Source: Alphaproteobacteria bacterium (GTDB lineage Bacteria > Pseudomonadota > Alphaproteobacteria > Rs-D84). From it: 64,000 nt of DNA. Location: the NCBI GenBank assembly GCA_031549365.1, contig JAVBPX010000001.1, forward strand, positions 1 to 64,000, given 5' to 3'. Shown here piece by piece: positions 1 through 16,478 of the stretch. A program made the position numbers and the translations under genes. Within the stretch, counting starts at the first letter, position 1. Every line of letters begins with the position of its first letter. The notes below the pieces were generated by a model. It saw only the letters and a list, made by a program, of their open reading frames with translations, searched no databases and was not told the origin of the DNA.

Positions 1-824
1 TCGTCATGCTCAAGGTTTGTGATTTCCCCACTGCGGCATCCTGTTAATGCGATTGCTTTGACTGCCAAAATCGTCTGGGGCGAATAATTGCCGATATCCA
101 GCGCATCGTCCAACGCCGCAAACAGTCTTTTGTATCCATCCAGGTCTAAAACCTGATATTTAAACTTTTGGGATTTGGCTTTTTGAACCAGTCGACATGG
201 ATTAGTGTTTATCTGTCGGTGGTTGTACTTTTCACACCAGTTTAGAAAGGTGGACATCAGTCGCATTACATGATCGGCGGCGGCGATGGTTTTATTGTTT
301 TTAATTTTATCGTATGCGTCTTGGATTGTGCCCAGGTCTATATCTTCGATAAACTTATCACCCAGGATTGGAGTTATATGAATTCGCATCAGGCTTGCAT
401 TTGTACGATATGTACCCTCGCGGTTGTTCTCGCGGCAGTGCTTGTCCATAAATACAGGAAACAGCTCTTTAAGCCTTTTACGTCGCGCCTCTCGTGCGGC
501 GGTTTCTCGAATGCGGTCACGTTGTGCAACCTGTGGGTCTGTACCTGCGAATATATCTTTTTTCATATCTACTGCCTTGGCACGAATATCGTTAAGCGAA
601 AATTCAACCAAAGTTCCAAGTCGCATATGCCGTTGACGTTTTGTACCACGAACCCGATATTGCAGGTAAAACACTTTGCGACCAGTTCTCGCCGAATACC
701 GAAATTGCAGACCTGGTAACGCGGCATCAGATATCTGTAAATTCCGATCAGATGTCAGATTTTTCAGGTATCCCGTTGTCAAAATTTTCTTAAAACACTC
801 TGTTTTTTGCATATCCCATACCAT
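1..824 (-). CDS. int: Tyrosine recombinase/integrase, P4-like with N-terminal arm-binding domain (3' end runs off window)
   Basis: Manual translation (not in ORF track): MQKTECFKKILTTGYLKNL..ISDAALPGLQFRYSARTGRKVFYLQYRVRGTKRQRHMRLG..GTDP (DUF4102-like), NPC motif, box I ALTGCRSGEI; open to base 1; start 824 or 812. Confidence 0.93.
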   Translation of the reverse strand, partial: MVWDMQKTECFKKILTTGYLKNLTSDRNLQISDAALPGLQFRYSARTGRKVFYLQYRVRGTKRQRHMRLGTLVEFSLNDIRAKAVDMKKDIFAGTDPQVAQRDRIRETAAREARRKRLKELFPVFMDKHCRENNREGTYRTNASLMRIHITPILGDKFIEDIDLGTIQDAYDKIKNNKTIAAADHVMRLMSTFLNWCEKYNHRQINTNPCRLVQKAKSQKFKYQVLDLDGYKRLFAALDDALDIGNYSPQTILAVKAIALTGCRSGEITNLEHD

Positions 825-863
825 TATGTTACACACATTACCGACACACGAACACAAGTCCAG

Positions 864-1064
864 TTAATAAGGCATTTGATTATTCTTTGCTTGATTATTC
901 AGCCAATTATCCACATCTGTCCGCCGATATCGCACCAAACGGTTCAGGACTTTTACATAATCCGGGCCAACCCCCGTCATGCGATACATGGCCAGGGTCG
1001 ACACCGCTATGCCCAGGTATTTTGCAACCTCTGCGGTGGTTATGAATTTTTCGTCGTTTTGCAT
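864..1064 (-). CDS. AlpA/excisionase-like HTH protein
   Basis: FITTAEVAKYLGIAVSTLAMYRMTGVGPDYVKV..RLVRYRRTDVDNWL; directly upstream of integrase. Confidence 0.88.
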   Translation of the reverse strand: MQNDEKFITTAEVAKYLGIAVSTLAMYRMTGVGPDYVKVLNRLVRYRRTDVDNWLNNQAKNNQMPY

Positions 1065-1552
1065 TTGTACTCCTTTAACGCTCTGTCAATCATCGACATG
1101 ATTGCGGATTCGCAATCGTGTATATCTTCTTCTAAAATCATTCGGGCCGAGTGTTCATCTGCCCCTTTGCGTACAAGCCTTGGGGCCATTCTGCTTGGTA
1201 AAATGCCAAGCCTGTTTCGTACAACCTGCTTAATTTCGAACAAGTCATGTTCTACTTTTTCGCGCAACACCAATTCTTTACACCTTTGCTCATATTTAAT
1301 TTTCAACAAAGCCACACGATATACCCAGTCCATCGTGCGCTCATCCCAATATCTTTTCTCGGCTCGGCACGACATAACTGCCGGCGGTTCCGCATAGTAT
1401 GCAGGGTTTGTATTCTGCGTCCATTGAGCATTGGCAATTTTTGGATCAATTTTATCGTTCATGGTTGAAATGCGACCATCGGCAATTGCCTTGCGAACAG
1501 CGCCTTCAGATACACCGCGCATTTTTGCATAAGCTCTTCTTGATACTAACAT
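1040..1552 (-). CDS. Terminase small subunit, lambda Nu1-like
   Basis: N-terminal winged HTH MLVSRRAYAKMRGVSEGAVRKAIADGRI; C-terminal LLKIKYEQRCKELVLREKVE..VRNRLGILPSRMAP typical of Nu1-like TerS; start trimmed to ATG 1552. Confidence 0.72.
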   Translation of the reverse strand: MLVSRRAYAKMRGVSEGAVRKAIADGRISTMNDKIDPKIANAQWTQNTNPAYYAEPPAVMSCRAEKRYWDERTMDWVYRVALLKIKYEQRCKELVLREKVEHDLFEIKQVVRNRLGILPSRMAPRLVRKGADEHSARMILEEDIHDCESAIMSMIDRALKEYKCKTTKNS

Positions 1553-1572
1553 TTCATTTTCTCTTTCGTTCG

Positions 1573-1817
1573 GCGCGGACCGTTTGGTACGCAGTCCGCA
1601 CCCACCGCGCAATTATAAAAAACAAAGTTTTCCAACGATTTTGAACAAAGTATGCGCGGACCGGTGTACGGTGTTTGTTAACTGTTTTTTACAAAAAACA
1701 CAATCCCTTCAATGTCTTGACCGTGCAGTGCGGACTGCGTACCGTTTTTATAAAGCAGTCGCTAGGCAACTGTCGGGGTCGCCTTTACCCGCGGCACGAA
1801 AAGCCGTCACAGAACCT
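1573..1817 (-). other. Putative cos packaging site (cosQ-cosN-cosB-like)
   Basis: Minus strand AGGTTCT-N27-GGCGACC, same spacing as lambda GGGTCCT..GGCGACC; perfect 16-bp inverted repeat at 1586-1601/1728-1743; GCGCGGACCG direct repeat at 1573 and 1654; directly upstream of terS. Confidence 0.65.
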
Positions 1818-2401
1818 ATATTTTTTTACGATAGTATTCATTTTGCTTGTTTATCCAGACCATTATTGCCGGCATAGAAAGGCTGTTTCCTGTACATTTT
1901 CTGATTAAAACCTCTTGTGTTTTCAGTAAAACTTCTTGTGGATATACGGACAAGACTTGACCAAGTTCTGGGTTGCGACGCATCAATTCAGCGAATGAAA
2001 AATCGTGTAAAATTGTGTATTTTGATTCTGAATTCGCGCTTAATTTCTTTGAAAAATCATTTATCAGAACATTAACATTGTTCTTGTTATTGATAATGTT
2101 ATTGGGGTTGTTATTTGTTATTGCGACAGATGCTGCGGAGCCAAGGTCATCAGATTCCATTTTCAATCTGTTCAGATTGTTTTGCCCATCTATTCTTGCG
2201 CGAAACAGATAGTCCTTTACATCTGTTCTGATACGCCGTCTGGTCACGGTCAATTTGCTTTTTCATATACAACCACAGCTGATGATCATATTTCCGATCT
2301 GGATATTCGAAAAGACACATCAGGATTTCGGCTTTTTCTTCCGCCGATAAGGCCGCAACCAAACCCGCCATTTCTGTTTCAACAAGAACACGCATGTCCA
2401 A
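1816..2401 (-). pseudogene. DUF6291-like phage replication protein, split into two overlapping frames (2150-2401 and 1816-~2160)
   Basis: First frame LSAEEKAEILMCLFEY..KKQIDRDQTAYQNRC..NRW; second frame supplies the Asn-rich linker and C-terminal domain; frames meet at GAAAATGGAATCTGA. Confidence 0.55.
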
Positions 2402-2404
2402 CTC

Positions 2405-2614
2405 CTATGCCCGTTTTCCAGTTCCCTGGAATGTCATTGTCTGCTCAAATTCTGTGATATCTGTTTTACGATAAACAATACGACCAACTCGTTTTATGAA
2501 CTTCGGTCCCACACCCATCGATCGCCACTTTTGCAAAGTATTGCGTTTCACATTCCATAACTCCGCCAGCGCTTTTTCAGTCAGATAATCATCCCGTCTT
2601 ATTGTGTCCGCCAT
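2405..2614 (-). CDS. AlpA/HTH_17 DNA-binding protein
   Basis: YLTEKALAELWNVKRNTLQKWRSMGVGPKFIKRVGRIVYRKTDI; RBS AAGGA before ATG 2614. Confidence 0.88.
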   Translation of the reverse strand: MADTIRRDDYLTEKALAELWNVKRNTLQKWRSMGVGPKFIKRVGRIVYRKTDITEFEQTMTFQGTGKRA

Positions 2615-2716
2615 TTTCCAATCCTTTATGTTTTTGGTTATGTATATGACGAACAAAGCACGAAAAATCACGTTTATCAATCGGCTAAAATGATACAAGA
2701 ATGACAGAAGGTTGCT

Positions 2717-3502
2717 TTATGTATATTTGCGCACAAAAAGTCGCGCTAATTGTATGAATGCGTTGGGAATATATACGAGCTTAAAGTTAGCATCAATCAA
2801 AGCTTGTAAGTTTATAATTGCTTGCGTCCTCCAAGAATTCGCAATATCTCTCAGTGTTTGGTTTGTCGTATCAAAGTTGTCACTTTGTTCTGATAAAGCC
2901 ACGAGATGGTTTTCAAGGTACGCATCAGACAAAACATATTCAATTTTATCCATAACGCCTGTTTTAGGATCTGCATCCTCGGAGCTTTGAAGTGCATGTT
3001 TTATAGTTGCAATGCCTGCATAGAATTTGACTTCGCCAAGCCATAGTTCTGGTTGGCTTGGACTATCAATTATATGAAATGAATCAAAGCCTGCGGTTTC
3101 GGTTTTCCCAAGCACATTATAAAAATATCCACGTGATACAATCGCATCTGTTCCGTATTTGGCTTTCAACACACAATCTAGCAATACCTCACCAAAGAAT
3201 CCTCGTTTTAATTTTGCCGCTTCACTGGAGTTTTCGTCATATCTGAGCTTGCTATGAAGAGCCCTTGCAAGCATTGGGGTATAGTCCGCATTGGTTAAGT
3301 CTTGCGCACTAAATGCATATTCAATAATTGAGTTATATATAATTTCAACCAACGCATTGTGGTTATTGCGTTCATAGCAGTCATCTTGACGATCTACATG
3401 TGTGTGCTTGATTTTATCAATACCAATGCCAGTATTGGGCAGGCTGTATTTTATAGATATAGTTCGATTTATTAAATTGCGTAAAGATTCTCTCATCATC
3501 AA
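2717..3502 (-). CDS. Hachiman HamA-like (DUF1837) PD-(D/E)XK nuclease, possibly C-terminally truncated
   Basis: GFFGEVLL..GFDSFHI..LWLGEVKFY motifs; start overlaps hsdR stop (ATGA). Confidence 0.75.
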   Translation of the reverse strand: MMMRESLRNLINRTISIKYSLPNTGIGIDKIKHTHVDRQDDCYERNNHNALVEIIYNSIIEYAFSAQDLTNADYTPMLARALHSKLRYDENSSEAAKLKRGFFGEVLLDCVLKAKYGTDAIVSRGYFYNVLGKTETAGFDSFHIIDSPSQPELWLGEVKFYAGIATIKHALQSSEDADPKTGVMDKIEYVLSDAYLENHLVALSEQSDNFDTTNQTLRDIANSWRTQAIINLQALIDANFKLVYIPNAFIQLARLFVRKYT

Positions 3503-6500
3503 CCATTATTTCTCTTAAAATTCTCTGCCTGTTCAAAGATTTCTTTGTAAACTTCGTCTCTATCAACAGGGGGATAATCGTGTTTAGCCAACAAGAGAAT
3601 CAAATCAACTTTCAATTCAGCTTTGATATCTTCACGCTTAAATGCATCGGTATATCTAACCTTGTCATTAACAACGTCGGCAACAGCTTGAGCCAGTGGT
3701 ATTAGTTTGTTGTCGGGATATTCAAATTGGTATTTATGCGCCAGTTCTTTCAGAATATCATAAAAAGCCTTTTCTTCAAAATTGATGCCCATATCCTTGA
3801 AAGACTCTTTTTCACGTTGCAGATCTCGATACAAACCAATAATTTCATCTGTGAATTCTTCCAAGACTTCGCTGCGCAGCACATCAGACTCTTTGCGTTC
3901 ATTGTATTTTTCAACCAGCGCAGAAAATTTATTAGAAAAATCAACGGCTTTGAACTTATTGACCTTTTTGAACTCGCAAATCGCACGTTCTAGCAATTTT
4001 TCTAACAATTTAATTTTTGTGTTTGGCAACTTGATTTTTTCAACTTTGGCCAGATAGTCTTCGCCAAATAAATCTATTTCAGCGTTATCCTCGCCCAGTT
4101 TGAATATCTCTTCAACCCCATCACTAACCAGTGCATCTTGGATCATTTCACGAACCCGTGCATTCATCTGGGATATATCAGGGGCATCGCCGCGTGTCAA
4201 TTTGAATACAATTGAACGAACTGCAATATAAAAGTGTACCAAATCGCATTCTTGTTGTGTTAGTAAACCACTGCCAACACATATATCGTATGCGGATTTT
4301 AGACGTTTGACCAAGTCCATGAACCTACGTTCAATCGCATCTGTAATTTGTACGAATTCTGCTGCATTGTTCAGACAATTCAACTGCGCTACGGGCGAAC
4401 CAGTAAAGTAAGGTGATTTATCAAATTTATGGAATATTTTGTTTAATAAATCCAAATGGTCTTTAACAACGATAACGGAAGTATTGATTTCTTCGATATT
4501 CTGTTCTTCGCCCTTGGAAAACATCGCCAGCGCAAGTCCCATTTGCTTTTTGATGCCAATATAGTCGACCACAAGCCCTTTGTCTTTACCTTCGAATTTA
4601 CGATTTACGCGAGAAATAGTTTGAATCAAAGAATGACGCTGTATCGGCTTATCAATATAGATTGTATCCAGTTCCGGCACATCGAATCCCGTCAACCACA
4701 TATCAACAACTATGGCAATTTTGAAATTTGATTTCGCGTTTTTAAATTGACGATCCAGCTCTTTACGATAATCAGATGTCCCCAACATATCGTACAGCGA
4801 CTTTTCATCATCTTTATTCCGTGTCATAACCAGTTTAATTTTCGAAATTGCTGGTGCGTCTTTATCGTCTGTACGTTCAATTGCCCAATCTGGTCGCAAT
4901 GATATTACTGCCTTGTAAAACTCATATGCGTTTGAACGATCGCTGGCCACAAACAACGCCTTGCCCATAACAGAGGCACCCTCACGCACTCGCGTTTCAT
5001 AATGTTCAACAAAGTCCCGCGCCAGCGCATTTATACGGTCTGGGTCGCCCAAAATAACATTCATATTGGCGCTGCATTTTTTGCTTTCTTCGATTTGATG
5101 TTCATTTGCACCATCAATCGCACATTGATCATAGTATTTTTCGATATCGGAAAGTTTGCTGTTATCCAGAACAACTTTTGCCGCACGTCCTTCATAAACT
5201 ATTCGGACAGTGATTTCGTCTGTTACGGATTCCGTCATTGTATAAGAATCTGAAATCGGACCGAATACATCCAACGTCGAATCAATCGGTGTGCCAGTAA
5301 ATCCAACATAGACGGCATTCGGCAATGAATCATGCAAATGTTTCGCAAAACCGTAAGTCTTTTTGATACCTTTATCGGTGACTTTGATTTTTTGATCCAA
5401 ATTGATTTGGCTGCGATGCGCTTCGTCCGATATGCAAATCACATTGCTGCGGTCGGTCAACATCTTGGTATCTTCTGTAAATTTATGAATAGTGGTTAAA
5501 AATACTCCGCCACCTTCGTGACCGCGCAATAATTCACGTAACTGTGCACGACTTTCGACACTGATAACATTTTCATCGCCGATGTACTTTTTGGCGCGAA
5601 CGAATTGTTTGGATAATTGGTCATCCAGGTCTGTGCGATCGGTAATTAAAACAATGGTTGGGTTTGCAAATTCGGGACTGCGCATCAATAGCCGTGTTAA
5701 AAACATCATTGTATAGCTTTTGCCACAACCTGTCGCCCCGAAATATGTTCCGCCGCGTCCATCGCCATTTGGGCGGCGCGCCGCCAAGATCGTATTGTAT
5801 AGTTTACGTGCAGCATAATATTGCGGATAACGACACACGATTTTTTCGTCCTTGGTACTGTTATCGGGAACATAGATAAAGTTCTGGATAATATCGCGCA
5901 GGCGGACACGGTTAAATGCGCCATTGATCATTGTATGTAATGACGATATGCCATCAACCGCAACCAATTCGTTACCATCAACCTTGCGCCAAGCATAAAA
6001 GAAATCATATGGTGCGAACAATCCGCCAATTTTGCTGTTTACGCCATCGGAAATCACGCACAGTGCATTGTATTTCATCAATTCTGGAATATCGCGGCGA
6101 TACCGCACAGTTAGTTGTTTATACGCGTCGTGAATTGTTGCATCTTCGCGTATTGCGGATTTGAATTCAAATACCACCAATGGCAGTCCGTTTATATATA
6201 GTATTCCATCGGGGATACGGCGTTCGGTGCCAACGATTTCCAGTTGGTTGACAATTCGATATTTGTTTTGATCCGCATCAGAATAATCAATCAGCGATAC
6301 GCGAAAGTCCTTTGCCTTTGAATCTTCGCGCTTTAAATCAAATCCATCGGTCAGTAATCGCATAAATTCTGAATTGCTGGAATACAGGTCATTGTGTGGC
6401 AAAGTTTCCAACCGACGAATAATCCCGCCGATTTCAGATTCAGTAATTTTATTTACAGCATACGCATTGCGCAAATATTCACGCAAGTCATCCAGAATCA

Positions 6501-6618
6501 GAACATCGGATTCAGATGTGCGCTTAATATCCATACCATTGGTATGTGGGATACCAACCCCACCCAATAATTCTATAATCGCCGCTTCTAATTGCGCTTC
6601 TGTGAATTTCATGATCAT
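3499..6618 (-). CDS. hsdR: Type I restriction enzyme R subunit
   Basis: PDGILYINGLPLVVFEFK nuclease motif, GATGCGKS Walker A, DEAH, FTGTP, LTGFD, QTISRVNR. Confidence 0.97.
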   Translation of the reverse strand: MIMKFTEAQLEAAIIELLGGVGIPHTNGMDIKRTSESDVLILDDLREYLRNAYAVNKITESEIGGIIRRLETLPHNDLYSSNSEFMRLLTDGFDLKREDSKAKDFRVSLIDYSDADQNKYRIVNQLEIVGTERRIPDGILYINGLPLVVFEFKSAIREDATIHDAYKQLTVRYRRDIPELMKYNALCVISDGVNSKIGGLFAPYDFFYAWRKVDGNELVAVDGISSLHTMINGAFNRVRLRDIIQNFIYVPDNSTKDEKIVCRYPQYYAARKLYNTILAARRPNGDGRGGTYFGATGCGKSYTMMFLTRLLMRSPEFANPTIVLITDRTDLDDQLSKQFVRAKKYIGDENVISVESRAQLRELLRGHEGGGVFLTTIHKFTEDTKMLTDRSNVICISDEAHRSQINLDQKIKVTDKGIKKTYGFAKHLHDSLPNAVYVGFTGTPIDSTLDVFGPISDSYTMTESVTDEITVRIVYEGRAAKVVLDNSKLSDIEKYYDQCAIDGANEHQIEESKKCSANMNVILGDPDRINALARDFVEHYETRVREGASVMGKALFVASDRSNAYEFYKAVISLRPDWAIERTDDKDAPAISKIKLVMTRNKDDEKSLYDMLGTSDYRKELDRQFKNAKSNFKIAIVVDMWLTGFDVPELDTIYIDKPIQRHSLIQTISRVNRKFEGKDKGLVVDYIGIKKQMGLALAMFSKGEEQNIEEINTSVIVVKDHLDLLNKIFHKFDKSPYFTGSPVAQLNCLNNAAEFVQITDAIERRFMDLVKRLKSAYDICVGSGLLTQQECDLVHFYIAVRSIVFKLTRGDAPDISQMNARVREMIQDALVSDGVEEIFKLGEDNAEIDLFGEDYLAKVEKIKLPNTKIKLLEKLLERAICEFKKVNKFKAVDFSNKFSALVEKYNERKESDVLRSEVLEEFTDEIIGLYRDLQREKESFKDMGINFEEKAFYDILKELAHKYQFEYPDNKLIPLAQAVADVVNDKVRYTDAFKREDIKAELKVDLILLLAKHDYPPVDRDEVYKEIFEQAENFKRNNG

Positions 6619-7307
6619 GCCCCTTGGTCTTCTTTATAGTTATTTAACATATTAACGGCCGCTTGTTTCTTAGCATTCCAAATGTTTAACTTTTGCCTTG
6701 GCGCAAAATCAAGATATGCTTTATCCACAATGCCGGCAAAATCTTTGGTGAAAGCTATAATTTTGTCTAGGTTGCTAGTTACATCTTGCGCCGTGATTTT
6801 ATCGCGACCATCCAACCTTAGATTGATCCAAGATATATGAAGTTCATTTTTTATAATTTTAAAGCTATTTAATGCCGATCTTAAATATTGTTGATATTCA
6901 ACGAATTTAATATTATTTGAATTTCTGTATAAAAATTCATCGTCAATCGCATCAATTCTTTCACATAAATTATTAAGTTTGTCGGCAAACTCAACACACC
7001 AGGATTCTGGAATAACCCTATTATTCTCTTCGGCTTTTCTTGAATTTATCTCTAACTGTTTGGCAAAATAATATAAAGATTCATTGCTTTTTAATAGTAT
7101 TTTTAACCCTTTGGTGTGAACATCTATCATATTTACAGAATCTACCGCGGCGGCAACAAAAAACGCCGTAGAAATGCAGACAATCAGATTACTAAAAAAT
7201 TGAGCATCCATATTTCCAATATATGAAGATTGCAGCCAATATGCTGCGCCACTTAAAATCAGAAAAAATATCACTCCGCCAAATACAATAATTTTTTTAG
7301 TTTTCAT
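6615..7307 (-). CDS. Hypothetical protein with two N-terminal TM helices, between hsdS and hsdR
   Basis: 230 aa; hydrophobic segments at about aa 6-25 and 37-56, helical soluble remainder; abuts hsdS and overlaps hsdR start. Confidence 0.75.
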   Translation of the reverse strand: MKTKKIIVFGGVIFFLILSGAAYWLQSSYIGNMDAQFFSNLIVCISTAFFVAAAVDSVNMIDVHTKGLKILLKSNESLYYFAKQLEINSRKAEENNRVIPESWCVEFADKLNNLCERIDAIDDEFLYRNSNNIKFVEYQQYLRSALNSFKIIKNELHISWINLRLDGRDKITAQDVTSNLDKIIAFTKDFAGIVDKAYLDFAPRQKLNIWNAKKQAAVNMLNNYKEDQGA

Positions 7308-8441
7308 TTATTCCTCGCTTACGGTTGCCGTTTTTGAAAGAAGTAAGTTTTTAATTTTTTTCAGTTGTTCGACTTCCTGACATTTGGTCTTTATTATTTT
7401 ATCCATAGGGTGTATAATTTTTTCGAAATCATCCAAGTTTTTTACAGATGGAACGACTATCGACAATTCTTTTAATTCATCTCTGTTTATCGAACCAAAC
7501 ACGGTTCCATCAGAATTAAATTTATCTAAATCAAATTTTAAATATTCACACAAATAAAACACAAAAGAATAGTGTTTGGTTTTAGATCTGATGGCCGCTA
7601 AACCTCGTCCAATACAACAAGATTCTGTAGCTACATTTATATCTCCAACTGGGGCTCGAACGCTCATTAAAATATCATTTTTTTGAGCCATTTTCTTCTT
7701 TTGTACTGTAAATAATCTGCGTGTAGGGTATCGCCAGCCAAACTCTGCGCGCCCCTGATAAAACACAACTCCAACCCCATTTTCATTGTAACTTTCACCA
7801 TCTGGGGATTGTCCCTGAACAATATCTGCAACATCTTCAAGCTGTCCAATACCCCAATCATTTGGCATGGTGCCGCCGAAGGGTTCAAAGTCCACGAACC
7901 AGGATTTAAATATAGCGCTTGCGATATTGGACAGATTTTGGGCAATTTGTTCGTTCAGTTTAATTCGGTCTGTGATGGTTTTATATTCTGCCACAATCGC
8001 GCGCTGTTTTTCGATACTTGGTACTGGTAATTCAATGTTGCACATTTCTTCCCATTCAAATATTTCCCTGGCACTGCCATGAGATTTAAACCGGGCATAC
8101 CTATCGAATTCTGGACGCATGAACCACATCATTAAGTATTCTGGTATCAATTCATTAGGATTTGTAATTTCAAACACTGTATATGCCTGCGACACTATTC
8201 CTGTTTCGTGTTGAGTTAATAGCGCTACTGATATTTTATCGCCATTCCGCGATGTAACTGGTCCATATGCAAATTGTCCACGATTTATTATTTTATAAGT
8301 CGACATATCTGTACCAACCGTATTGGCTATTGATGCCATCAGTATCTTTTGTATACTTACGCCTAGTAATGGCAGGTCAGAACAATCGGAATTGCGATTA
8401 TTAACAATACGTATAAAATATCCAAGTCGTTTATATGCCAT
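7308..8441 (-). CDS. hsdS: Type I R-M specificity subunit
   Basis: Two TRDs with conserved PVPSIEKQRAIV..IFKSWFVDF..PNDW spacer and LLLSK C-terminus. Confidence 0.95.
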   Translation of the reverse strand: MAYKRLGYFIRIVNNRNSDCSDLPLLGVSIQKILMASIANTVGTDMSTYKIINRGQFAYGPVTSRNGDKISVALLTQHETGIVSQAYTVFEITNPNELIPEYLMMWFMRPEFDRYARFKSHGSAREIFEWEEMCNIELPVPSIEKQRAIVAEYKTITDRIKLNEQIAQNLSNIASAIFKSWFVDFEPFGGTMPNDWGIGQLEDVADIVQGQSPDGESYNENGVGVVFYQGRAEFGWRYPTRRLFTVQKKKMAQKNDILMSVRAPVGDINVATESCCIGRGLAAIRSKTKHYSFVFYLCEYLKFDLDKFNSDGTVFGSINRDELKELSIVVPSVKNLDDFEKIIHPMDKIIKTKCQEVEQLKKIKNLLLSKTATVSEE

Positions 8442-9978
8442 AGCCCAGATCCTTTAAGACTTTGACTAATTCAGATTGGGATTGCGCAGAAGATTTTAAC
8501 AGGTCGCCCAATTGCGCCGAAAGCTCTCGCATTTTAGTATCAAAATCCACATTTTCGTCACGATTCACAAATTCAATATATTTGGATGGGACCAGTGAAG
8601 CATCCTTTTCCAAAATTGCATCCTTGGTCATGCTTTTGCAATATTCCGGAGTATCGGTATATTTATCTTTGTCCACCTGCCACGTATGGTATGTATTTGC
8701 GATATCTCGAATGTCTGTTTCGGATAATTGGGTAAATTTTTTCTCAAACGGTTCGCCAATTTGGCGCAGGTCCATAAATAACAATTCGTCTGTACGGTCG
8801 CGATATTTGCGCCCGTTTGCACCAACATGTTCCTTTTTATTCTTGTTCAAAATCCAAAGCGTAACGCTGATATCCGTTGTATAAAACATTGCTCGTGGTA
8901 ACATCACAATCGCTTCTATCAAATCGTTTTCAATCAGTTTCCTGCGGATTGCCTTTTCGACGCCATCGCCGGACAATGCGCCATTTGCCAAAATAAAGCC
9001 CGCGATGCCGTTTTCAGACAATTTGCTGACCATGTGCAAAATCCATGCATAGTTTGCATTGCTGGCCGGTGGTACGTCATACCCCGCCCAACGGGCATCA
9101 TCAATCAATTCATCATTTGCCCGCCAATCCTTTAAATTAAATGGCGGATTTGCCATGATGTAATCAGCTTTCAGGTCTGGGTGTTGATCACGCCCGAATG
9201 TGTCCGCGGGAATATCACCCAAATTTGCAGATATTCCGCGTATCGCCAGATTCATCTTGGCCAGTTTATATGTTGTTGCAATCTGTTCTTGGCCATATAT
9301 TGATATGTCTTTGGTATTGCCCTGATGGCTTTCGACAAATTTCATGGATTGCACAAACATGCCGCCCGATCCGCATGCAGGGTCATAGATTTTTCCCTTG
9401 AACGGTTCAATCATTTCCGCGATCAAATTTACAATTGATTTCGGGGTATAGAATTCGCCTTTGCCTTTGCCTTCGGCCAATGCAAATTTAGACAGAAAGT
9501 ATTCATAGATGCGACCAACCAAATCCTGTTCTTTGTCTTTCAGTGTGTCAATGTTGCTGATAGTATCGACCAGCGCCGCCAATTTTGATGGATCCAGTTG
9601 CAGTCGCGAGAAATAGTTATCAGGCAATGCGCCAGCAAGCTGTTTATTCGTCTTTTCAATCTTTGATAATGCCGTGTCTATTTTAATTGCCAAATCAGGC
9701 TGCTTGGCACTCGCGCGAATGAACTCCCAGCGGGATTCTAGCTCCAGATAGAATATATTATCTTTTACATAAAATGCAGGTTCTTCGACAAACTTTTCAT
9801 GTCCATCGGCAATAATCTGCGCACGACGATCTTCAAACTTATCGCTTATAAATTTAAGGAATATCAATGACAAAGCTACATGCTTATATTCTGACGGTTC
9901 GACTGTTCCGCGCAACTTATTTGCCGCATCCCATAACGATACTTCTATTTTCTTTTCAAGCTTCTCTTTCTTTGCCAT
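8431..9978 (-). CDS. hsdM: Type I R-M N6-adenine methyltransferase
   Basis: LWDAANKLRG, GEFYTP, YDPACGSGG, NPPF. Confidence 0.97.
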   Translation of the reverse strand: MAKKEKLEKKIEVSLWDAANKLRGTVEPSEYKHVALSLIFLKFISDKFEDRRAQIIADGHEKFVEEPAFYVKDNIFYLELESRWEFIRASAKQPDLAIKIDTALSKIEKTNKQLAGALPDNYFSRLQLDPSKLAALVDTISNIDTLKDKEQDLVGRIYEYFLSKFALAEGKGKGEFYTPKSIVNLIAEMIEPFKGKIYDPACGSGGMFVQSMKFVESHQGNTKDISIYGQEQIATTYKLAKMNLAIRGISANLGDIPADTFGRDQHPDLKADYIMANPPFNLKDWRANDELIDDARWAGYDVPPASNANYAWILHMVSKLSENGIAGFILANGALSGDGVEKAIRRKLIENDLIEAIVMLPRAMFYTTDISVTLWILNKNKKEHVGANGRKYRDRTDELLFMDLRQIGEPFEKKFTQLSETDIRDIANTYHTWQVDKDKYTDTPEYCKSMTKDAILEKDASLVPSKYIEFVNRDENVDFDTKMRELSAQLGDLLKSSAQSQSELVKVLKDLGYGI

Positions 9979-9993
9979 TTTTATTCCTTGCTT

Positions 9994-11133
9994 TTAATCC
10001 TGGTTTAGTGCGTCGACGTAGTGTTTGTACACGTATGTCTGACCCCATTTTTGTTCTGATAATGGTGCCAAAATTTCCAATTCAATCAGACGGTTAACCG
10101 AACTGATTGCAGTTGGACGCGACAATCCCGTTTTTTCGACCAATTCGCCGATTTTTAACATTGGTTTTTTGCGGAACTGTTCCAATACTTTTAATGTTGC
10201 TGGCGCGGAACGCCCAATGCCCGTGACCGTATTTTCGTCACGTTGGAATATGTGGCGAATTTTCATCAGGGTATTTTTCGCATCCGTTGCGGTTTCGGCA
10301 ACACCTTCCAAAAAGAAGTTTAACCATTGTTCCCAATCGCCATCAACGCGGACGCCATTCAGATAATCGTAATAAAGTTGTCGGTGCTTTTTGAAAAACA
10401 ACGACAAATACATATACGGCGAATTCAAAAATCCGCGCGCGGTCAGATAGAATGTAATCAACAAGCGACCAACACGACCATTGCCATCAAGAAACGGGTG
10501 AATTGTTTCAAATTGATGATGAATAAATGCCGCACGGACCAGTTCTGGGATATCATCATGCTTGTTCATAAATTTTTCAAAATCGCCCAATGCGGCGGCC
10601 AATTTTTCGGGGCTAGTTGGAACGAATTTTGCATTCCCAGGGCGCGTGCCACCAATCCAATTCTGAGTTGTCCGGAATTCGCCAGGCGTTTTATTTTTTC
10701 CGCGATTATTGGTCATCAGCACTTTGTGAATTTCACGTATCAGGCGCAGTGACATCGGAAGTTTTTCAAGCCGTTTCAGACCGTAATCCATGGCGGAAAC
10801 ATAGCTTGAAACCTCTGCCACGTCGTCAACTGGTATACCAATGTTATCCGCAGCCTCGTACTTCAAAAGATCGTCCAAAGTTGATTGCGTGCCTTCAATC
10901 TGCGAGGACAGAACCGCCTCTTTGCGAACGTAAATATAATTGATAATGTCAGAGTCCGGAATCAAACCGACGACGCCATTCAGTTCGCCTATGGCACGGT
11001 TTGCCAATTCCAGCGATCGTTTAATCTCTGAATAGTCGATTTCTGGTGGCAACGGGTTCGGTGCATAGGTATTATAAGCCTCTGGACCGACTCCGCTGGA
11101 TTTAGTGTAAATGCCTTGATTCTTGCGTTTCAT
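9994..11133 (-). CDS. Fic family protein (N-terminal inhibitory helix, C-terminal HTH)
   Basis: HPFLDGNGRVGR Fic motif; SSQIEG inhibitory motif; start trimmed to ATG 11133 with AGAGG RBS. Confidence 0.95.
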   Translation of the reverse strand: MKRKNQGIYTKSSGVGPEAYNTYAPNPLPPEIDYSEIKRSLELANRAIGELNGVVGLIPDSDIINYIYVRKEAVLSSQIEGTQSTLDDLLKYEAADNIGIPVDDVAEVSSYVSAMDYGLKRLEKLPMSLRLIREIHKVLMTNNRGKNKTPGEFRTTQNWIGGTRPGNAKFVPTSPEKLAAALGDFEKFMNKHDDIPELVRAAFIHHQFETIHPFLDGNGRVGRLLITFYLTARGFLNSPYMYLSLFFKKHRQLYYDYLNGVRVDGDWEQWLNFFLEGVAETATDAKNTLMKIRHIFQRDENTVTGIGRSAPATLKVLEQFRKKPMLKIGELVEKTGLSRPTAISSVNRLIELEILAPLSEQKWGQTYVYKHYVDALNQD

Positions 11134-11155
11134 AGTGCTGTACCTCTGTATAAAC

Positions 11156-11184
11156 AGCATATCAAACAGCCTTTACAAAGTCAA
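11156..11184 (-). promoter_or_regulatory. Sigma70 promoter for the fic-hsd operon
   Basis: TTGACT-N17-TATGCT on the minus strand. Confidence 0.6.
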
Positions 11185-11351
11185 GACACAAATTAAAGAT
11201 AATCAACGAACTTTAATTTTCTCTAAAAGTTTGTAAAAGTTCATTTTAGGCAAAAATGCTACACATTTGCTACATAGAATATTATACTGTGAGAAACAAA
11301 ACGGTGCAATGGCACGGGAAACGGGCGAACGACTGTAACTAGCACAGGGGA

Positions 11352-11396
11352 TTTCTAAGCTGTGGGTCAGAGGTTCGAATCCTCTCGGGCACGCCA
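11352..11396 (+). repeat. attR-like 3' half of tRNA-Arg(UCU)
   Basis: TTTCTAA-GCTGT-GGGTC-AGAGGTTCGAATCCTCT-CGGGCACGCCA; no matching 5' acceptor strand or D-arm upstream. Confidence 0.88.
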
Positions 11397-11441
11397 ATAA
11401 ATACAATATACCCCTTGCGGGTATTTTTATTTATTTTGCAA

Positions 11442-11558
11442 GCCCAAGATTCGAACCGTCAGGTTCGCTTAAACATTTTTGTGACGCAGTCGCAAAAATC
11501 GTTTGGAAAGGGGCCCACGAGTTTACGAAGTGGGAATTACAATCTCTCGGGCACGCCA
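11442..11558 (+). repeat. Structured mini-element ending in a second copy of the tRNA-Arg 3' end
   Basis: Antisense T-arm GATTCGAACC, three hairpins, then AATCTCTCGGGCACGCCA (11541-11558). Confidence 0.6.
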
Positions 11559-11590
11559 CTACAACAAATTACATTATTTTCAAAAACCTG

Positions 11591-11619
11591 TTGCATTTAA
11601 AAAAATATCTGGTTATAAT
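11591..11619 (+). promoter_or_regulatory. Sigma70 promoter of tRNA-Pro
   Basis: TTGCAT-N17-TATAAT. Confidence 0.75.
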
Positions 11620-11629
11620 GCCAGGCGTT

Positions 11630-11706
11630 CGGGGCGTAGCTCAGTCTGGTAGAGTGTCTGGTTTGGGACCAGAAGGTCGCAGGTTCGGATCCTGTCGCCC
11701 CGACCA
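11630..11706 (+). tRNA. tRNA-Pro(UGG)
   Basis: CGGGGCG acceptor, CTGGT-TTGGGA-CCAGA anticodon region, GGTTCGGATCC T arm, encoded CCA. Confidence 0.96.
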
Positions 11707-11714
11707 GAATACTT

Positions 11715-11742
11715 AAAAGTCGCATTTATATGCGGCTTTTTT
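11715..11742. terminator. Intrinsic terminator, likely bidirectional
   Basis: AAAAGTCGCAT-TTAT-ATGCGGCTTTTTT. Confidence 0.75.
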
Positions 11743-11915
11743 CGTGTGTGGCGCACGTTCTGCGGGCCTTACGCCACACTCGTGTGACTTGGTATATAAC
11801 CCAACTTGCCCGCCGAAGCGTTCCGCGAAGGCCGGGTCTATACAATGCCCATTTTCGTGAAGTCAAGGGTAGTAAAAACATTGATTTTATATTAAATATA
11901 TGGCAAAATTCATGC

Positions 11916-12260
11916 ATGAAAAAGACAGAGCAAGAACACAATTTTTGGTTTTACCTAAGATGGATGTTATTACCATTGCTTAATTTGCTTATTGTAAGCG
12001 GAGTTGTAACAATATTTTTATATTTCTATGCATTTTTTGCACCACTTGTCACGTGGATTCCTGTTTGTACTGATGATGCACAATGCGCTGTTGCTTATGT
12101 AGGTTATTTAATATTTTTAGCAATATTAATTTCATTTATCCCTATGTTCTTTATAGCTAGATGGGTGGCGCCAAAATACAAAAAACAGATGGGCATACTT
12201 TCAATACTTGGGATTATTGGAATTATATTTCTGTTGTTTATAATAGTCTCATTGTTATGA
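11916..12260 (+). CDS. Small membrane protein (3 TM), hypothetical
   Basis: Start trimmed to MKKTEQEH; three hydrophobic helices and a CTDDAQC loop. Confidence 0.65.
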   Translation: MKKTEQEHNFWFYLRWMLLPLLNLLIVSGVVTIFLYFYAFFAPLVTWIPVCTDDAQCAVAYVGYLIFLAILISFIPMFFIARWVAPKYKKQMGILSILGIIGIIFLLFIIVSLL

Positions 12261-12446: not shown

Positions 12447-13130
12447 ATGAATGATTCAGAAAAACTATTGAAAATCCGAATTGTTCTGCAACAAGTTGCA
12501 GATATTTTTGATAATGCGATTACACCAGGTATAACACGTCAGGAATGGATAAAAAATCATGATATAAAAACAGGATTGAATTACAATTTCTCATTAACCG
12601 CAGATGATATTATAAAAAATAAAATCCCACGGCGTGTCGTTGGCTGCACAGGTATTGCCAAGGTTTTTGGCAAGTTGGCAAAAGAGGCAGGTTTGGAGTG
12701 TTTTGTTGTATCAACCGCTAATTACGAAGACTGGAAAAAAGCAAAAGAAGCCGATAAGAATAAACAAAAACGAAATATTATAAATGGACATCAAATAATC
12801 GCAGTACAGTTTTCAGATGGATTGAAGGCTTTTGAGCCAGCAAATCCAAAATTAGAATTTATCAATGGTGAAGTTAAGTTAGGCAAACTTATAAAGGCAA
12901 CAGGCAATACTGGTCCAGATTTCCTTATTTCTGCGATATCGACACCAGATATGTTCGCAAATGTAAAAGAATACCAAAATATCGTTAATCTTTACACCAG
13001 TGGAGATATGAATAACGATAAATTTATAATCAAGCCCGAGATGGAGCGATTTAAGTCAGGCATAAAGAATATAAAAAACAAAACAGCAAATATGTTTCGT
13101 CATTATTTTTTTCACAAATCGCATGAATAA
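12447..13130 (+). CDS. Transglutaminase-like/papain-fold hypothetical protein
   Basis: GCTGIAKVFGKLAKEAGL..GHQIIAV..AFEP resembles the Cys-His-acid triad arrangement. Confidence 0.6.
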   Translation: MNDSEKLLKIRIVLQQVADIFDNAITPGITRQEWIKNHDIKTGLNYNFSLTADDIIKNKIPRRVVGCTGIAKVFGKLAKEAGLECFVVSTANYEDWKKAKEADKNKQKRNIINGHQIIAVQFSDGLKAFEPANPKLEFINGEVKLGKLIKATGNTGPDFLISAISTPDMFANVKEYQNIVNLYTSGDMNNDKFIIKPEMERFKSGIKNIKNKTANMFRHYFFHKSHE

Positions 13131-14855: not shown

Positions 14856-16478
14856 TTATTTTAATCCGGCCTGAATAAATGAACAGAATAACGGATGCGA
14901 CGTAAATGGAGATGATTGAAATTCTGGATGAAATTGTCCCGCAATAAAAAACGGATGATTCTTTAATTCAATTATTTCTGGCAACTTTCCGTCTGGCGAT
15001 TTCCCAGATACAATCAATCCCCTTTTTTCAAAACCGTCACATAAATTTAAATCCAGTTCATAGCGATGGCGATGGCGCTCTGAAATTTTTGTTTTGCCAT
15101 AAATTTTATGCGCCAAAGTTTTTGGTTCAATAACACATGGATATCCCCCCAAACGCAGTGTTCCACCCAAATCTGAATCGGCGCTACGTTTTGTTTTTTT
15201 ACCGTTTTGATCCCATTCAGACATCAATGAAATAATTGGTGTACATTTATTTGTAAACTCTGTTGAATGGGCGTTTTTAATACCCATAACATTCCGCGCA
15301 AATTCAATAACTGCCAATTGCATACCCAAACAAATTCCCAAAAATGGAATTTTATTTTCGCGGGCATGTTTAATTGCAATCATTTTTCCGTCAACACCGC
15401 GATTCCCGAATCCGCCAGGAATCAGAATACCGTTAACGCCCGCAAATTCTTTTCTGATTTGGGATGCATTCATTTTTTCTAAATCTTCGGCATTAACTTT
15501 TTTAATATTAACGACAACATTGTTCGCTATGCCTGCATGAAATATTGCTTCGGCCAATGATTTATACGCATCCGGGACATCGAAATATTTTCCAACCATT
15601 GCAATTGTTGTTTCGCGTTTTTTTGCGTTTAAATATTTTTCAATCTTGGTCCACTTTGAAAAATCAGGTGCCCTACGCGGACGAATTCCAAAATGCTGCA
15701 ATATTAATTTATCAACACATTGTCCACGGTATGCGGATGGGATTTTATAAATACTGTCCATATCCAATGCTGTAATAACATTATCCGGCGACAAATTACA
15801 GAACAAGGCGACTTTTTTACGATCCGAATCAGACAACATTTTTGCCGAACGACATAATAACATGTCAACCTGAATCCCAGCTTCCAACATTTGGCGAACC
15901 GAATGTTGCGTCGGTTTTGTTTTTAATTCATTCGCAGTCGATATATATGGAATTAAAGTCAAATGCACAAACATTACATTTTTACGCCCAACATCATTTG
16001 AAAATTGACGAATTGCTTCTAAAAACACTTGGCCTTCGATGTCTCCGACGGTGCCCCCTATTTCATAAATTACAAAATCTTCGTTTCCTTTGCTTGACTT
16101 TATGTAATGTTTAATTTGGTCTGTTACATGCGGGATTGTTTGAACTGTGGATCCTAAATAATCACCACGACGTTCACGAGTTAAAACATCCCAATAAATT
16201 CTGCCACCGGAAATACTGTCGCAACGATTTAATTCAATGCCTAAAAATCTTTCGTAATATCCCAAATCCAAATCGGTTTCATAACCATCATTTGTAACAT
16301 AAACTTCGCCATGCTGTAACGGAGACATGGTACCCGGATCAATATTTAAATAAGGGTCAAATTTACATATTTTCACACGATATCCATATGCCTGTAATAA
16401 CGATCCGATTGACGCCGCGGCAACACCCTTGCCCAATGATGAAACCACCCCTCCTGTAACAAAAATATACCGTTTCAT
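14856..16478 (-). CDS. pyrG: CTP synthase
   Basis: YIFVTGGVVSSLGKG, DPYLNIDPGTMSP, GICLGMQ, QFHPEF. Confidence 0.98.
   Translation of the reverse strand: MKRYIFVTGGVVSSLGKGVAAASIGSLLQAYGYRVKICKFDPYLNIDPGTMSPLQHGEVYVTNDGYETDLDLGYYERFLGIELNRCDSISGGRIYWDVLTRERRGDYLGSTVQTIPHVTDQIKHYIKSSKGNEDFVIYEIGGTVGDIEGQVFLEAIRQFSNDVGRKNVMFVHLTLIPYISTANELKTKPTQHSVRQMLEAGIQVDMLLCRSAKMLSDSDRKKVALFCNLSPDNVITALDMDSIYKIPSAYRGQCVDKLILQHFGIRPRRAPDFSKWTKIEKYLNAKKRETTIAMVGKYFDVPDAYKSLAEAIFHAGIANNVVVNIKKVNAEDLEKMNASQIRKEFAGVNGILIPGGFGNRGVDGKMIAIKHARENKIPFLGICLGMQLAVIEFARNVMGIKNAHSTEFTNKCTPIISLMSEWDQNGKKTKRSADSDLGGTLRLGGYPCVIEPKTLAHKIYGKTKISERHRHRYELDLNLCDGFEKRGLIVSGKSPDGKLPEIIELKNHPFFIAGQFHPEFQSSPFTSHPLFCSFIQAGLK

Follow-up and report, generated by a model that had tools for sequence, protein, structure and literature searches.

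What moves a chromosomal island that encodes an integrase and a terminase small subunit (TerS) together with a cargo of defence genes, and none of the proteins of a phage particle? The question is raised by positions 1–11,396 of contig JAVBPX010000001.1, from an uncultured alphaproteobacterium with a reduced genome (assembly GCA_031549365.1). The stretch analyzed, hereafter the window, is the first 64 kb of this contig (C14); the source genome, G000, comprises 911 kb in 15 contigs, is 97.6% complete and has about 39% G+C. Other genomes of the order are numbered G, loci are numbered L, the sister genus is called g14, and a terS element without the gene of the large terminase subunit (terL) is called a mini-element or mini. 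What is known of phage satellites comes largely from a few cultured hosts and covers four or five gene layouts. We consider it fairly probable that the island belongs to an undescribed family of small (about 12–16 kb), helper-dependent cos satellites that carry their own TerS, and, on balance, that it is or recently was mobilized by a helper. No description of such a family was found in the literature searched.

The ORF list places thirteen open reading frames (ORFs) between bases 3 and 11160, all on the minus strand. Along the coding strand they run Fic, hsdM, hsdS, a 230-aa ORF, hsdR, HamA, alpA2, DUF6291, orf114, the cos site, terS, alpA1 and int, the integrase gene coming last, and they divide into a cargo slot of about 8.5 kb and a compact core of about 2.6 kb. 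A first reading of the letters, the original prediction, had proposed this gene set and this division, and each gene was found on the minus strand where it had been placed. It had also reported that no terL, portal, capsid, tail, lysis, primase-helicase or conjugation genes were present. Searches with Pfam (all 13 ORFs) and PHROGs (the nine ORFs other than hsdR, hsdS, hsdM and the Fic gene) agreed, finding no terL, portal, capsid, tail, lysis, primase, helicase or conjugation family, and no relaxase or oriT-associated family. The cargo was searched with PADLOC.

The 263 bp between orf114 and terS are non-coding, and a site of about 90 nucleotides in this region was conserved in all four of the minis first aligned, where the flanking proteins are only 30–45% identical. 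Within it, GGGTAAMGGCGACCSCGA and CTAGCGA are near-invariant; the core in G000 is GGGTAAAGGCGACCCCGA, at 1790–1773. In minis the site lies between the DUF6291 gene and terS. A profile built from it has one copy in G000 and matches 19 of the 19 mini-type loci read. Phages have it as well (L033, L032 and L106; L043; the phages of G024, G267 and G276; and, by profile, L042), and in the phages where terS was found it precedes terS-terL by up to about 3.5 kb, methylase or ATPase genes lying between them. Six matches at E ≤ 0.01 were obtained on 80 IMG/VR terS loci, while G+C-rich phage relatives have a diverged site directly before terS that the profile missed and that was seen by eye.

The probable meaning of the site came from three Rhodobacter capsulatus phage records of the RcC cluster (MW677510, MW677517 and MW677520; RcDormio, RcKemmy and RcOceanus). 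[quoted passage not shown] In GenBank, the RcDormio and RcKemmy records close with ...TTAGGTTCTTCC...CTATGCG and start with GGGGGCGGAAGCGCGTTAAGTCCCTAGCG..., followed by a T run and then three GTTTCCAC repeats, so that the record ends fall inside the aligned core in two of the three records read. The boundary aligns to the start of the conserved core, at about 1790/1789 of the window, and the first 11 bases correspond to 1789–1779. A cohesive-end region is predicted at about 1779–1790. The island and the RcC phages have a common architecture, consisting of AGGTTCT, the core, CTAGCG, an A/T run, tandem repeats and terS on one strand. In lambda the order is cosN, cosB, Nu1 (excerpts of PMC6092414), and the island, with core, repeats and terS in succession on one strand, has the same order. 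The cos-like site of the original prediction is homologous to the region that holds the RcDormio and RcKemmy record ends, and this homology places a putative cut site, then repeats, upstream of terS. We interpret the non-coding site as a cos site: its sequence is shared with phages, and cleavage at this place, like binding by TerS, is predicted from that sharing.

Other meanings were considered and dropped. For a structured RNA, an Rfam search (E ≤ 1, window 1–12000) gave only a tRNA-Pro, and RNAalifold gave four pairs at −1.2 kcal/mol with no compensatory change. For a late promoter, a sigma-70 scan found 9 sites where 8.6 were expected, and the idea was abandoned because phage record ends had been found inside the site. 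Scans with the exact 18-nt pattern returned 24 viral and at least 119 metagenome stretches; among the matches listed (at least 143 loci), five also encode a TerS relative (L032, L033, L043, L106 and L112), and the remaining ones, which come without a TerS relative, were set aside as chance matches in G+C-rich DNA.

The company that TerS keeps elsewhere points to the same packaging system. Distant homologues (27–30% identity) in a Bradyrhizobiaceae metagenome-assembled genome and in an IMG/VR contig lie directly before a terL of the gpA family (GpA_ATPase 7e-100, GpA_nuclease 5e-92), which is followed by a small ORF in the gpW position and a lambda-family portal gene. GpA_ATPase, GpA_nuclease and then Phage_portal_2 come directly after the terS homologues of L006, L008 and L019. 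TerS homologues are, in other words, paired with a gpA-family TerL and a lambda-family portal, as in a lambda-like module. A scan of IMG/VR with the TerS alignment kept 80 loci. In 58 of them terL directly follows terS; the other 22 have no terL within 1.5 kb, and nine of these reach far enough to show terL after ParB-methylase genes. An integrase follows terS in none of the 80. The homologue is annotated as terminase small subunit in 11 R. capsulatus phage records (27–60% identity). The phage-like genes of the genome thereby show a relationship to phages of Alphaproteobacteria. The AlphaFold model of TerS (mean pLDDT 76) has an N-terminal winged-helix domain, which Foldseek matched to the gpNu1 DNA-binding domain 1j9i with a probability of 0.97 and a root-mean-square deviation of 1.9 Å over 53 columns, but with an E value of 0.9, and Xis and MerR folds score alike. 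No Foldseek match of the model had an E value below 0.4, and the sequence matched nothing below 0.2 among solved structures. The label Nu1-type thus derives chiefly from synteny and from the PHROG match.

The short repeats next to the core are specific to the element. Every element has a tandem pair of 7–9-mers about 25–30 nt past CTAG, and some have more direct or inverted copies before terS. In G000 the pair GGTACGCA/GTCCGCAC lies at 1743–1728 with an inverted copy at 1601–1586; copies of the GCGGACCG type are about 81 nt apart, and one inverted repeat, I1, is perfect over 16 nt. From lineage to lineage the repeats vary in step with the residues round the recognition helix of TerS, with six clear variants (Table 1) and phage L043 less clear. 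The co-variation is correlative, and the six lineages behind it are themselves related. Between G000 and the G024 phage the first 52 residues of TerS are 72% identical, the highest value among G000 pairs, and the remainder 21%; both carry GGTACGCA. Many g14 minis have the same 17-nt core, AGGGTAACGGCGAGCGC, as the g14 phage of G276, and different repeats. These observations fit a TerL cut site that is shared, flanked by binding sites specific to each TerS. The DUF6291 protein was considered as the repeat binder, which is possible in principle, but that of G000 is nearest to G006 (62%) and far from the phage (36%), while the repeats match the phage.

Table 1. Tandem repeats beside the predicted cos core and residues of the TerS recognition helix, by lineage.
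Lineage	Repeats	TerS helix
g14 minis	GGTGAAC/GGTGAACA	AVSAVQKAIETGRI
G024, G267, G276 phages	GGTACGCA/CGGTACGCA	TEGAVRKAIA[ST]GRI
G000	GGTACGCA/GTCCGCAC	SEGAVRKAIADGRI
G006	GGTTCGCA/GTTCGCAC	SDAAVRKAIETGRI
L112	CAGTGAGC twice	SPSAVAKAVAEGRI
L033	GTCCCCAC/TGCCCAC	SPKAVRRAIATGRI

The island is one of a group. With the TerS alignment, a terS match was found in 37 of 328 genomes of the order, 34 of the matches lying among the 257 species searched in g14. The 29 terS loci that were read comprise 19 of mini type, nine of phage type (ParB-methylase, terS, gpA terL) and one, in G006, without an integrase; a further mini was found in G024, which holds a mini on contig C5 and a phage on contig C7. The conserved small-element synteny with variable cargo that had been anticipated is thus present in 19 of 29 loci of related genomes and in G024. 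The order in the 19 minis is a DUF6362-like gene, alpA2, the DUF6291 protein, cos, terS, a small ORF and the integrase, and this core, with varying defence cargo, occurs in 20 of the 257 g14 species searched. The alpA2 of G000 is 65–71% identical to the first core gene of related minis. The core of G000 is a mosaic, its integrase being nearest to g14 elements and its DUF6291 gene and terS nearest to G006. The 18 terS sequences compared are all distinct and open, with a median dN/dS of 0.16 (146 pairs, median dS 0.66); the median is 0.063 for int (18 sequences) and 0.155 for the fused DUF6291 gene (7 sequences). Constraint on terS in elements that have no TerL argues against plain decay. Host divergence was abandoned as a yardstick for vertical versus horizontal descent for want of a shared protein or flank: a 788-aa protein of the window had no match in five relatives, and the flanks of G000 share nothing with those in g14.

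How the island sits in the chromosome was read from its ends. The sole tRNA-Arg(UCU) of G000 was located by ARAGORN at C7 101429–101505, 96 bp from the end of that 101,601-bp contig, and its 3′ end (C7 101473–101505) is repeated exactly over 33 bp at window 11364–11396, or over 44 bp with 2 mismatches from 11353. The original prediction had described this 3′ duplicate correctly. Its further expectation, an intact tRNA-Arg(UCU) to the left of the integrase, held in that the gene is present at the end of C7; it is not on the contig of the window, whose end is base 1, and the two contigs are joined here by reconstruction. By sequence identity the gene on C7 is taken as attL and the copy in the window as attR. 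The only tRNA that ARAGORN calls near the island is a tRNA-Pro(UGG) at 11630–11706, outside it. A contig of the probable source run in Logan stops at 11393, and three contigs diverge past 11401. In the relative G115 the unoccupied site consists of tRNA-Arg(UCU), 62 bp and tRNA-Pro(UGG), and G000 from 11544 to tRNA-Pro aligns with it, which indicates that the island was inserted between two ancestrally adjacent tRNA genes. The 15-nt att core has two exact copies in the window, where none is expected by chance. Since the second (11544–11558) lies at the place of the tRNA-Arg 3′ end in G115, the 147 bp from one att core to the next appear to have been left behind by an insertion that came before, and the site appears to have been used more than once.

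The same site serves the relatives. A tRNA-Arg(UCU) comes right after int in 15 of 18 enlarged mini loci, and the tRNA 3′ copies give element sizes of 13.0 kb in G106, 14.3 kb in G150, 14.4 kb in G246 and 15.7 kb in G209. The left att copy was not found for L020 and L021, both of whose contigs begin inside or near the element. In several g14 loci (for example L020, 6644–6683) the 5′ half of tRNA-Arg recurs as a second, 41-nt copy about 280 bp past the tRNA. In G245 (L212, G245:C4; 1737–1888 versus 16153–16229) the tRNA-Pro flank is inverted relative to the tRNA-Arg at the far element end. A serine recombinase is common in g14 elements.

The left end was reconstructed. The integrase is open at the contig end (window base 1), where its catalytic C-terminal part is cut off. 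Read evidence consisted of the contigs (Logan) of one run, probably the source run and the sole run holding island DNA. Two other contigs of this run share window 1–141 and 1–156; they measure 2.1 and 2.8 kb, have depths of 62 and 54, compared with 33–34 for the island, and one shows 13 differences. The 3′ part of the integrase is thus a repeat within the sample, which explains the contig break. This sharing of window 1–156 also points to further elements or strains with a near-identical integrase in the sample. Related minis have a 412-aa integrase (63–67% identical to that of G000) at about 110 bp from the tRNA; on this basis the gap between C7 and C14 is put at about 400 bp and the element at about 11.9 kb, close to the 12 kb first estimated, across a contig join and an integrase end that are both reconstructed.

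Complete phages with related parts were compared with the minis. The one-contig genome G276 has a phage-type locus in a 52-kb stretch delimited by a 60-bp exact direct repeat beside tRNA-Asn. The order in this prophage is an alpA1-int head; early genes, namely alpA2, a 141-aa gene, DUF6291, DUF6362 and a 186-aa gene; cos; and a DUF4143 ATPase, ParB-methylase, terS, terL and portal. Its integrase is 35–38% identical to those of the minis; it is the one related prophage that was placed, and it sits beside tRNA-Asn with another integrase than the minis at tRNA-Arg. Because minis differ from this phage type in integrase, att site, position of int and repeat/TerS specificity, they are not derivable from it by one in-place deletion. 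Only six of the 60 ORFs of the G276 prophage match G000, all of them non-structural (terS, the DUF6291 gene, alpA2, int, a ParB-methylase on C8 and one other); its structural genes have no homologue in the whole G000 genome, in keeping with the earlier view that no prophage structural module is present. The ParB-domain DNA methylase on C8 (44535–45833) stands alone and is 35% identical to the one preceding terS in related phages. The genomes of RcC-cluster phages have 37.6–42 kb (excerpts of PMC8601537), and the larger IMG/VR phage contigs 52–59 kb. An element of 12–16 kb is one quarter to one third of related phage genomes (37–59 kb), from which packaging as three or four units would follow.

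Taken together, a sequence of events can be proposed. A lambda-like helper phage with a gpA-type large terminase would infect the cell. AlpA-type proteins would then switch the module on, and the integrase together with AlpA1/Xis would excise the element, as their families suggest; the DUF6291 protein may help replication. With its N-terminal winged helix-turn-helix the element TerS would bind the repeats private to the element next to cos, as the lineage co-variation suggests, and would recruit the TerL of the helper to the conserved cos core, which is common to phages and where cleavage would take place. The DNA would then be packaged into helper particles, probably with three or four units to a multimer. 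For the island, dependence on a helper, excision, replication and packaging in this form are all predictions. We put forward tentatively, as a serious possibility more than an expectation, the joint interpretation that cosN was copied from the helper; that private repeats and a matching Nu1-like TerS redirect the helper TerL; that elements with about six core genes and no capsid-size gene travel as three- or four-unit concatemers; and that such elements are the main exchangeable carrier of defence genes in genomes of 0.7–1.3 Mb.

Several results weigh against a functional satellite. No mini type was present among the 80 IMG/VR terS loci, which gives no sign of encapsidation. The RcOceanus record does not start at the cos site; the same sequence is contiguous there and the record starts at gene 1. 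Neither a primase, a helicase nor a recognized origin was found in the Pfam and PHROG scans of the island ORFs. The catalytic half of the integrase is unassembled, with the C7–C14 join only reconstructed, and it is absent from the rest of the assembly, where the three PF00589 matches are other genes. Other such results are the very ones that would be expected if the island were a fixed, immobile phage-derived remnant at tRNA-Arg, in which int, terS and cos are fossils or have a host-level use such as cargo regulation. In G000 no direct sign of mobility was seen: the depth of the island (33–34) is that of the chromosome (flank 32), and no excised form, excision joint or molecule end was listed among the contigs of the one run, in which absence proves nothing. 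Two joints that were listed, 681 to 6739 and 3783 to 7348, were seen in one contig each with a side of 21, below the reliability advice, and were not used. No helper was found in G000, where the terL, portal and other structural ORFs of G276 have no match and PF05876 gives only a sub-threshold match of 21 bits. The DUF6291 gene of G000 is split by a frameshift in an A run (2150–2162) into two overlapping ORFs, and is whole in five aligned homologues; the split could reflect decay, an assembly error or a tolerated division. In G006, alpA2, a fused DUF6291 gene, cos and terS (L018, G006:C1 9482–12168) stand between tRNA-Met and tRNA-Thr with no cargo and no integrase match in the 20 kb read, and this copy is probably a remnant at another site. 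Nearly all minis, moreover, occupy one site (all with a visible tRNA, 15 of 18) in mostly one genus, and part of their spread may be vertical. We nevertheless regard a remnant as unlikely. The terS, int and DUF6291 genes are intact and under purifying selection across dS values of about 0.3–0.7 in 18 elements, the cos core and its matched repeats are conserved as non-coding DNA, and the distribution is patchy (20 of 257 g14 species searched), with empty sites in relatives. The second att scar speaks for repeated insertion, and the mosaic core is at odds with a fixed locus.

A defence island whose TerS and cos act as a decoy, sabotaging the packaging of gpA-terminase phages with little or no transfer of its own, would agree with the defence genes that make up the rest of the island, and a phage cos core combined with its own TerS/repeat specificity could draw TerL away from a phage. 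Satellites are known to interfere with the packaging of their helpers (excerpts of 10.1101/2024.04.22.590561). Interference and transfer are not exclusive, however, and are coupled in characterized satellites; furthermore, a pure decoy would need neither an integrase/Xis module nor att repeats, and the strong constraint on the integrase (dN/dS 0.063) and the intact att repeats accordingly count against it, leaving this explanation improbable. Movement by conjugative mobilization, natural transformation or generalized transduction, with terS and cos left over from phage ancestry, seems more improbable still: several relatives have a serine recombinase and a second tyrosine recombinase, and no replication genes were recognized, but no relaxase, oriT-associated or conjugation family occurs in the 13 ORFs and the conserved parts are exactly those needed for cos packaging.

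The helper-dependent satellite that we prefer would have to be replicated, and the DUF6291 gene gives a weak lead. Its second part in G000, orf114, aligns with the C-terminal part of single 184–199-aa proteins of five other elements or phages and is 44% identical to that of G006. Fused homologues have weak PHROG matches to a "primosomal protein" (2e-4 and 7.7e-4), and in one Atlas cluster DUF6291 occurs together with DnaB_2 on 76% of members. The protein is therefore at most a candidate replication organizer of the DnaD/primosomal type. No mention of DUF6291 was found in the literature searched.

By its protein families the cargo consists of HamA, type I restriction-modification (R-M) and SoFic, all of them anti-phage defence types (Table 2). 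HamA comes without a HamB helicase gene in the island, and its start and the hsdR stop share 4 bases, which hints at a coupling to the restriction subunit. Exchange of cargo is visible where the elements of two species show 98% identity over 3.8 kb and yet differ in one slot, filled by a retron-type reverse transcriptase (PADLOC RT_VI 1.8e-71) in the first and by an 890-aa Ppl-like ATPase in the second, which also has a Panacea-domain (PanA-type) pair between int and the tRNA. Elsewhere the cargo includes a type IIG-like enzyme with an Eco57I-type methylase, a HaeIII R-M pair, a type III-like methylase and helicase pair, Fic proteins with a helix-turn-helix (HTH), and glycosyltransferases. The att-bounded, 14.3-kb L202 (G150:C7, 1636–12400) has a threonyl-tRNA synthetase, a radical-SAM/SPASM enzyme, an M42 peptidase and an HlyD/MacB exporter, a content that suggests a cluster for a peptide antibiotic or for self-resistance more than one for phage defence.

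Table 2. Features of the island and of its right border, in window coordinates.
Feature	Position	Strand	Evidence
Integrase (tyrosine), N-terminal 285 aa	3–857	-	Arm-DNA-bind_3 1.5e-11, Phage_int_SAM_3 (Pfam); phrog_1 integrase 2.5e-26
alpA1, AlpA/Xis-like small HTH, candidate excisionase	864–1064	-	HTH_17 8.1e-9; phrog_66 "excisionase and transcriptional regulator" 3.2e-10
TerS, Nu1-position type, 170 aa, ATG at 1552	1040–1552	-	phrog_57 terminase small subunit 6.6e-20
Element-specific short repeats, cosB position	1573–1747	-	Repeat families D1, D2, inverted repeat I1
cos site (predicted), non-coding	1742–1833	-	Conservation in minis and phages; phage record ends
orf114, 114 aa, C-terminal half of DUF6291 protein, separate frame	1816–2160	-	Alignment to single 184–199-aa proteins
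DUF6291 ORF, N-terminal half	2150–2395	-	PF19808 1e-5, 26.0 bits, below the Pfam cut-off of 27.2
alpA2, second AlpA-like HTH, first core gene, candidate activator	2405–2614	-	HTH_17 1.2e-7
HamA (DUF1837), defence nuclease-like	2717–3502	-	Pfam HamA 1.2e-16; PADLOC HamA1 4.5e-72
hsdR	3499–6618	-	Pfam HSDR_N, SWI2_SNF2, T1RH-like_C; PADLOC REase_I E 0
Unnamed 230-aa ORF inside type I R-M system	6615–7307	-	PADLOC: no match
hsdS	7308–8441	-	Pfam Methylase_S; PADLOC Specificity_I 6.8e-61
hsdM	8431–9978	-	Pfam N6_Mtase; PADLOC MTase_I 8.4e-148
Fic protein with C-terminal winged HTH, SoFic defence type	9994–11160	-	Fic_N 3.7e-25, Fic 2.4e-21; PADLOC SoFic 2.1e-116
attR, copy of tRNA-Arg(UCU) 3′ part	11353–11396	+	Exact 33 bp at 11364–11396 and 9-bp block from 11353
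Second 15-nt att core copy	11544–11558	+	Exact match; alignment with empty site of G115

Outside the island, to the right of tRNA-Pro, a 176-aa ORF (window 11730–12260) has a sub-threshold match to the C-terminal part of an MFS transporter, and a 227-aa ORF (window 12447–13130) in a stretch of 34% G+C has a faint papain-fold toxin match; these may be a gene fragment and another small insert. Beyond the window, ARAGORN calls a tRNA-like gene with a two-base undetermined anticodon at C14 155784–155856.

If the proposed satellite is real, it adds gut bacteria that are uncultured and genome-reduced to the hosts of satellites, and its layout is one that current family definitions, judged from the definitions alone, would probably fail to recognize. 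Its packaging logic would be readable from DNA, with a cut site common with phages and private repeats that co-vary with the TerS DNA-binding domain, and it leads to testable predictions on how cos specificity divides between TerL and TerS and on the packaging of a 12–16 kb element, one quarter to one third of helper size. The element would also be a defined hotspot for swaps of defence systems between species, including type I, II and III R-M, HamA, SoFic, a retron and a Ppl-like ATPase.

It remains to place the island among known systems. P4-like satellites have about 12 kb, occupy a tRNA gene, encode a tyrosine integrase and an AlpA/Vis-like protein, have defence hotspots and are packaged through cos by the terminase of the helper. 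P4 is not known to have a terS of its own, and it has an alpha primase-helicase, Sid, Psu and Delta. No homologue of these four was detected among the 13 ORFs (Pfam, PHROG), and the P4-like gene set is thus not that of the island. Nor does the island contain the capsid, portal, protease, connector and terL genes of phage-inducible chromosomal islands of the capsid-forming kind (cf-PICIs). When set against the features of PICIs in general, it is an att-bounded island of 10–15 kb (about 11.9 kb, estimated across the unassembled gap) at a specific site with the integrase at one end, free of structural and lysis genes, and it has both a terS and a cos of its own. The primase, replication initiator and ori of PICIs are missing, the weak DnaD/primosomal lead of DUF6291 being all that was found, and so is the gram-negative layout with int and then alpA at the left end. 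The misfit with the classic PICI, cf-PICI and P4 layouts suspected in the original prediction was therefore seen in the features compared.

Gram-negative PICIs such as EcCICFT073 are nevertheless similar in many respects (excerpts of PMC6092414). They have 10–15 kb, with the integrase at one end, encode AlpA-type regulators and lack structural and lysis genes; they also have a cos that resembles the cosN of the helper with a different cosB, and accessory or defence cargo. In contrast to them, the island has no pri-rep replication module, and its order is alpA2...terS-alpA1-int, with int last beside the tRNA, whereas that of the PICI has int-alpA first. The island has its own TerS; EcCICFT073, as described in the same excerpts, has none and uses that of the phage. 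In SaPI-type PICIs a satellite TerS recognizes its own packaging site and recruits the helper TerL (excerpts of PMC6092414 and 10.1101/2024.04.22.590561), as is predicted for the island. SaPI-type elements differ in using pac (headful) packaging, in their Gram-positive coccal hosts and in having the Stl repressor, pri-rep and capsid-size genes; the island has a cos with a lambda-like cosN-cosB-terS order, and no Ppi-like or capsid-remodelling gene was recognized in it.

PICMIs (excerpts of PMC10803314) and marine VEIMEs (excerpts of PMC9618062) resemble the island in having few core genes, AlpA-type control and no capsid remodelling, and both are packaged as concatemers in full-size capsids; some VEIMEs have terS homologues and Alphaproteobacteria hosts. 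PICMIs differ by insertion next to fis, by the need for a primase and by having no terminase gene, a term absent from the main text of PMC10803314; the island is inserted at tRNA-Arg, has no primase and has terS. VEIMEs are defined by their presence in virions (excerpts of PMC9618062), while the island is known here from its genes. The island family goes beyond both of these groups in its defined cos site and its large load of defence genes. Phages of the RcC cluster have a homologous TerS and the same site architecture, after which come TerL, gpW, portal and the remainder of a 37–42 kb genome, where the island stops after terS and continues with alpA1-int. In the features compared, then, the element falls outside the definitions of PICI, P4, cf-PICI and PICMI, and its layout does not agree with that of PLE either; by analogy, the island would work most like a PICI with its own TerS, built on a lambda-type cos system.

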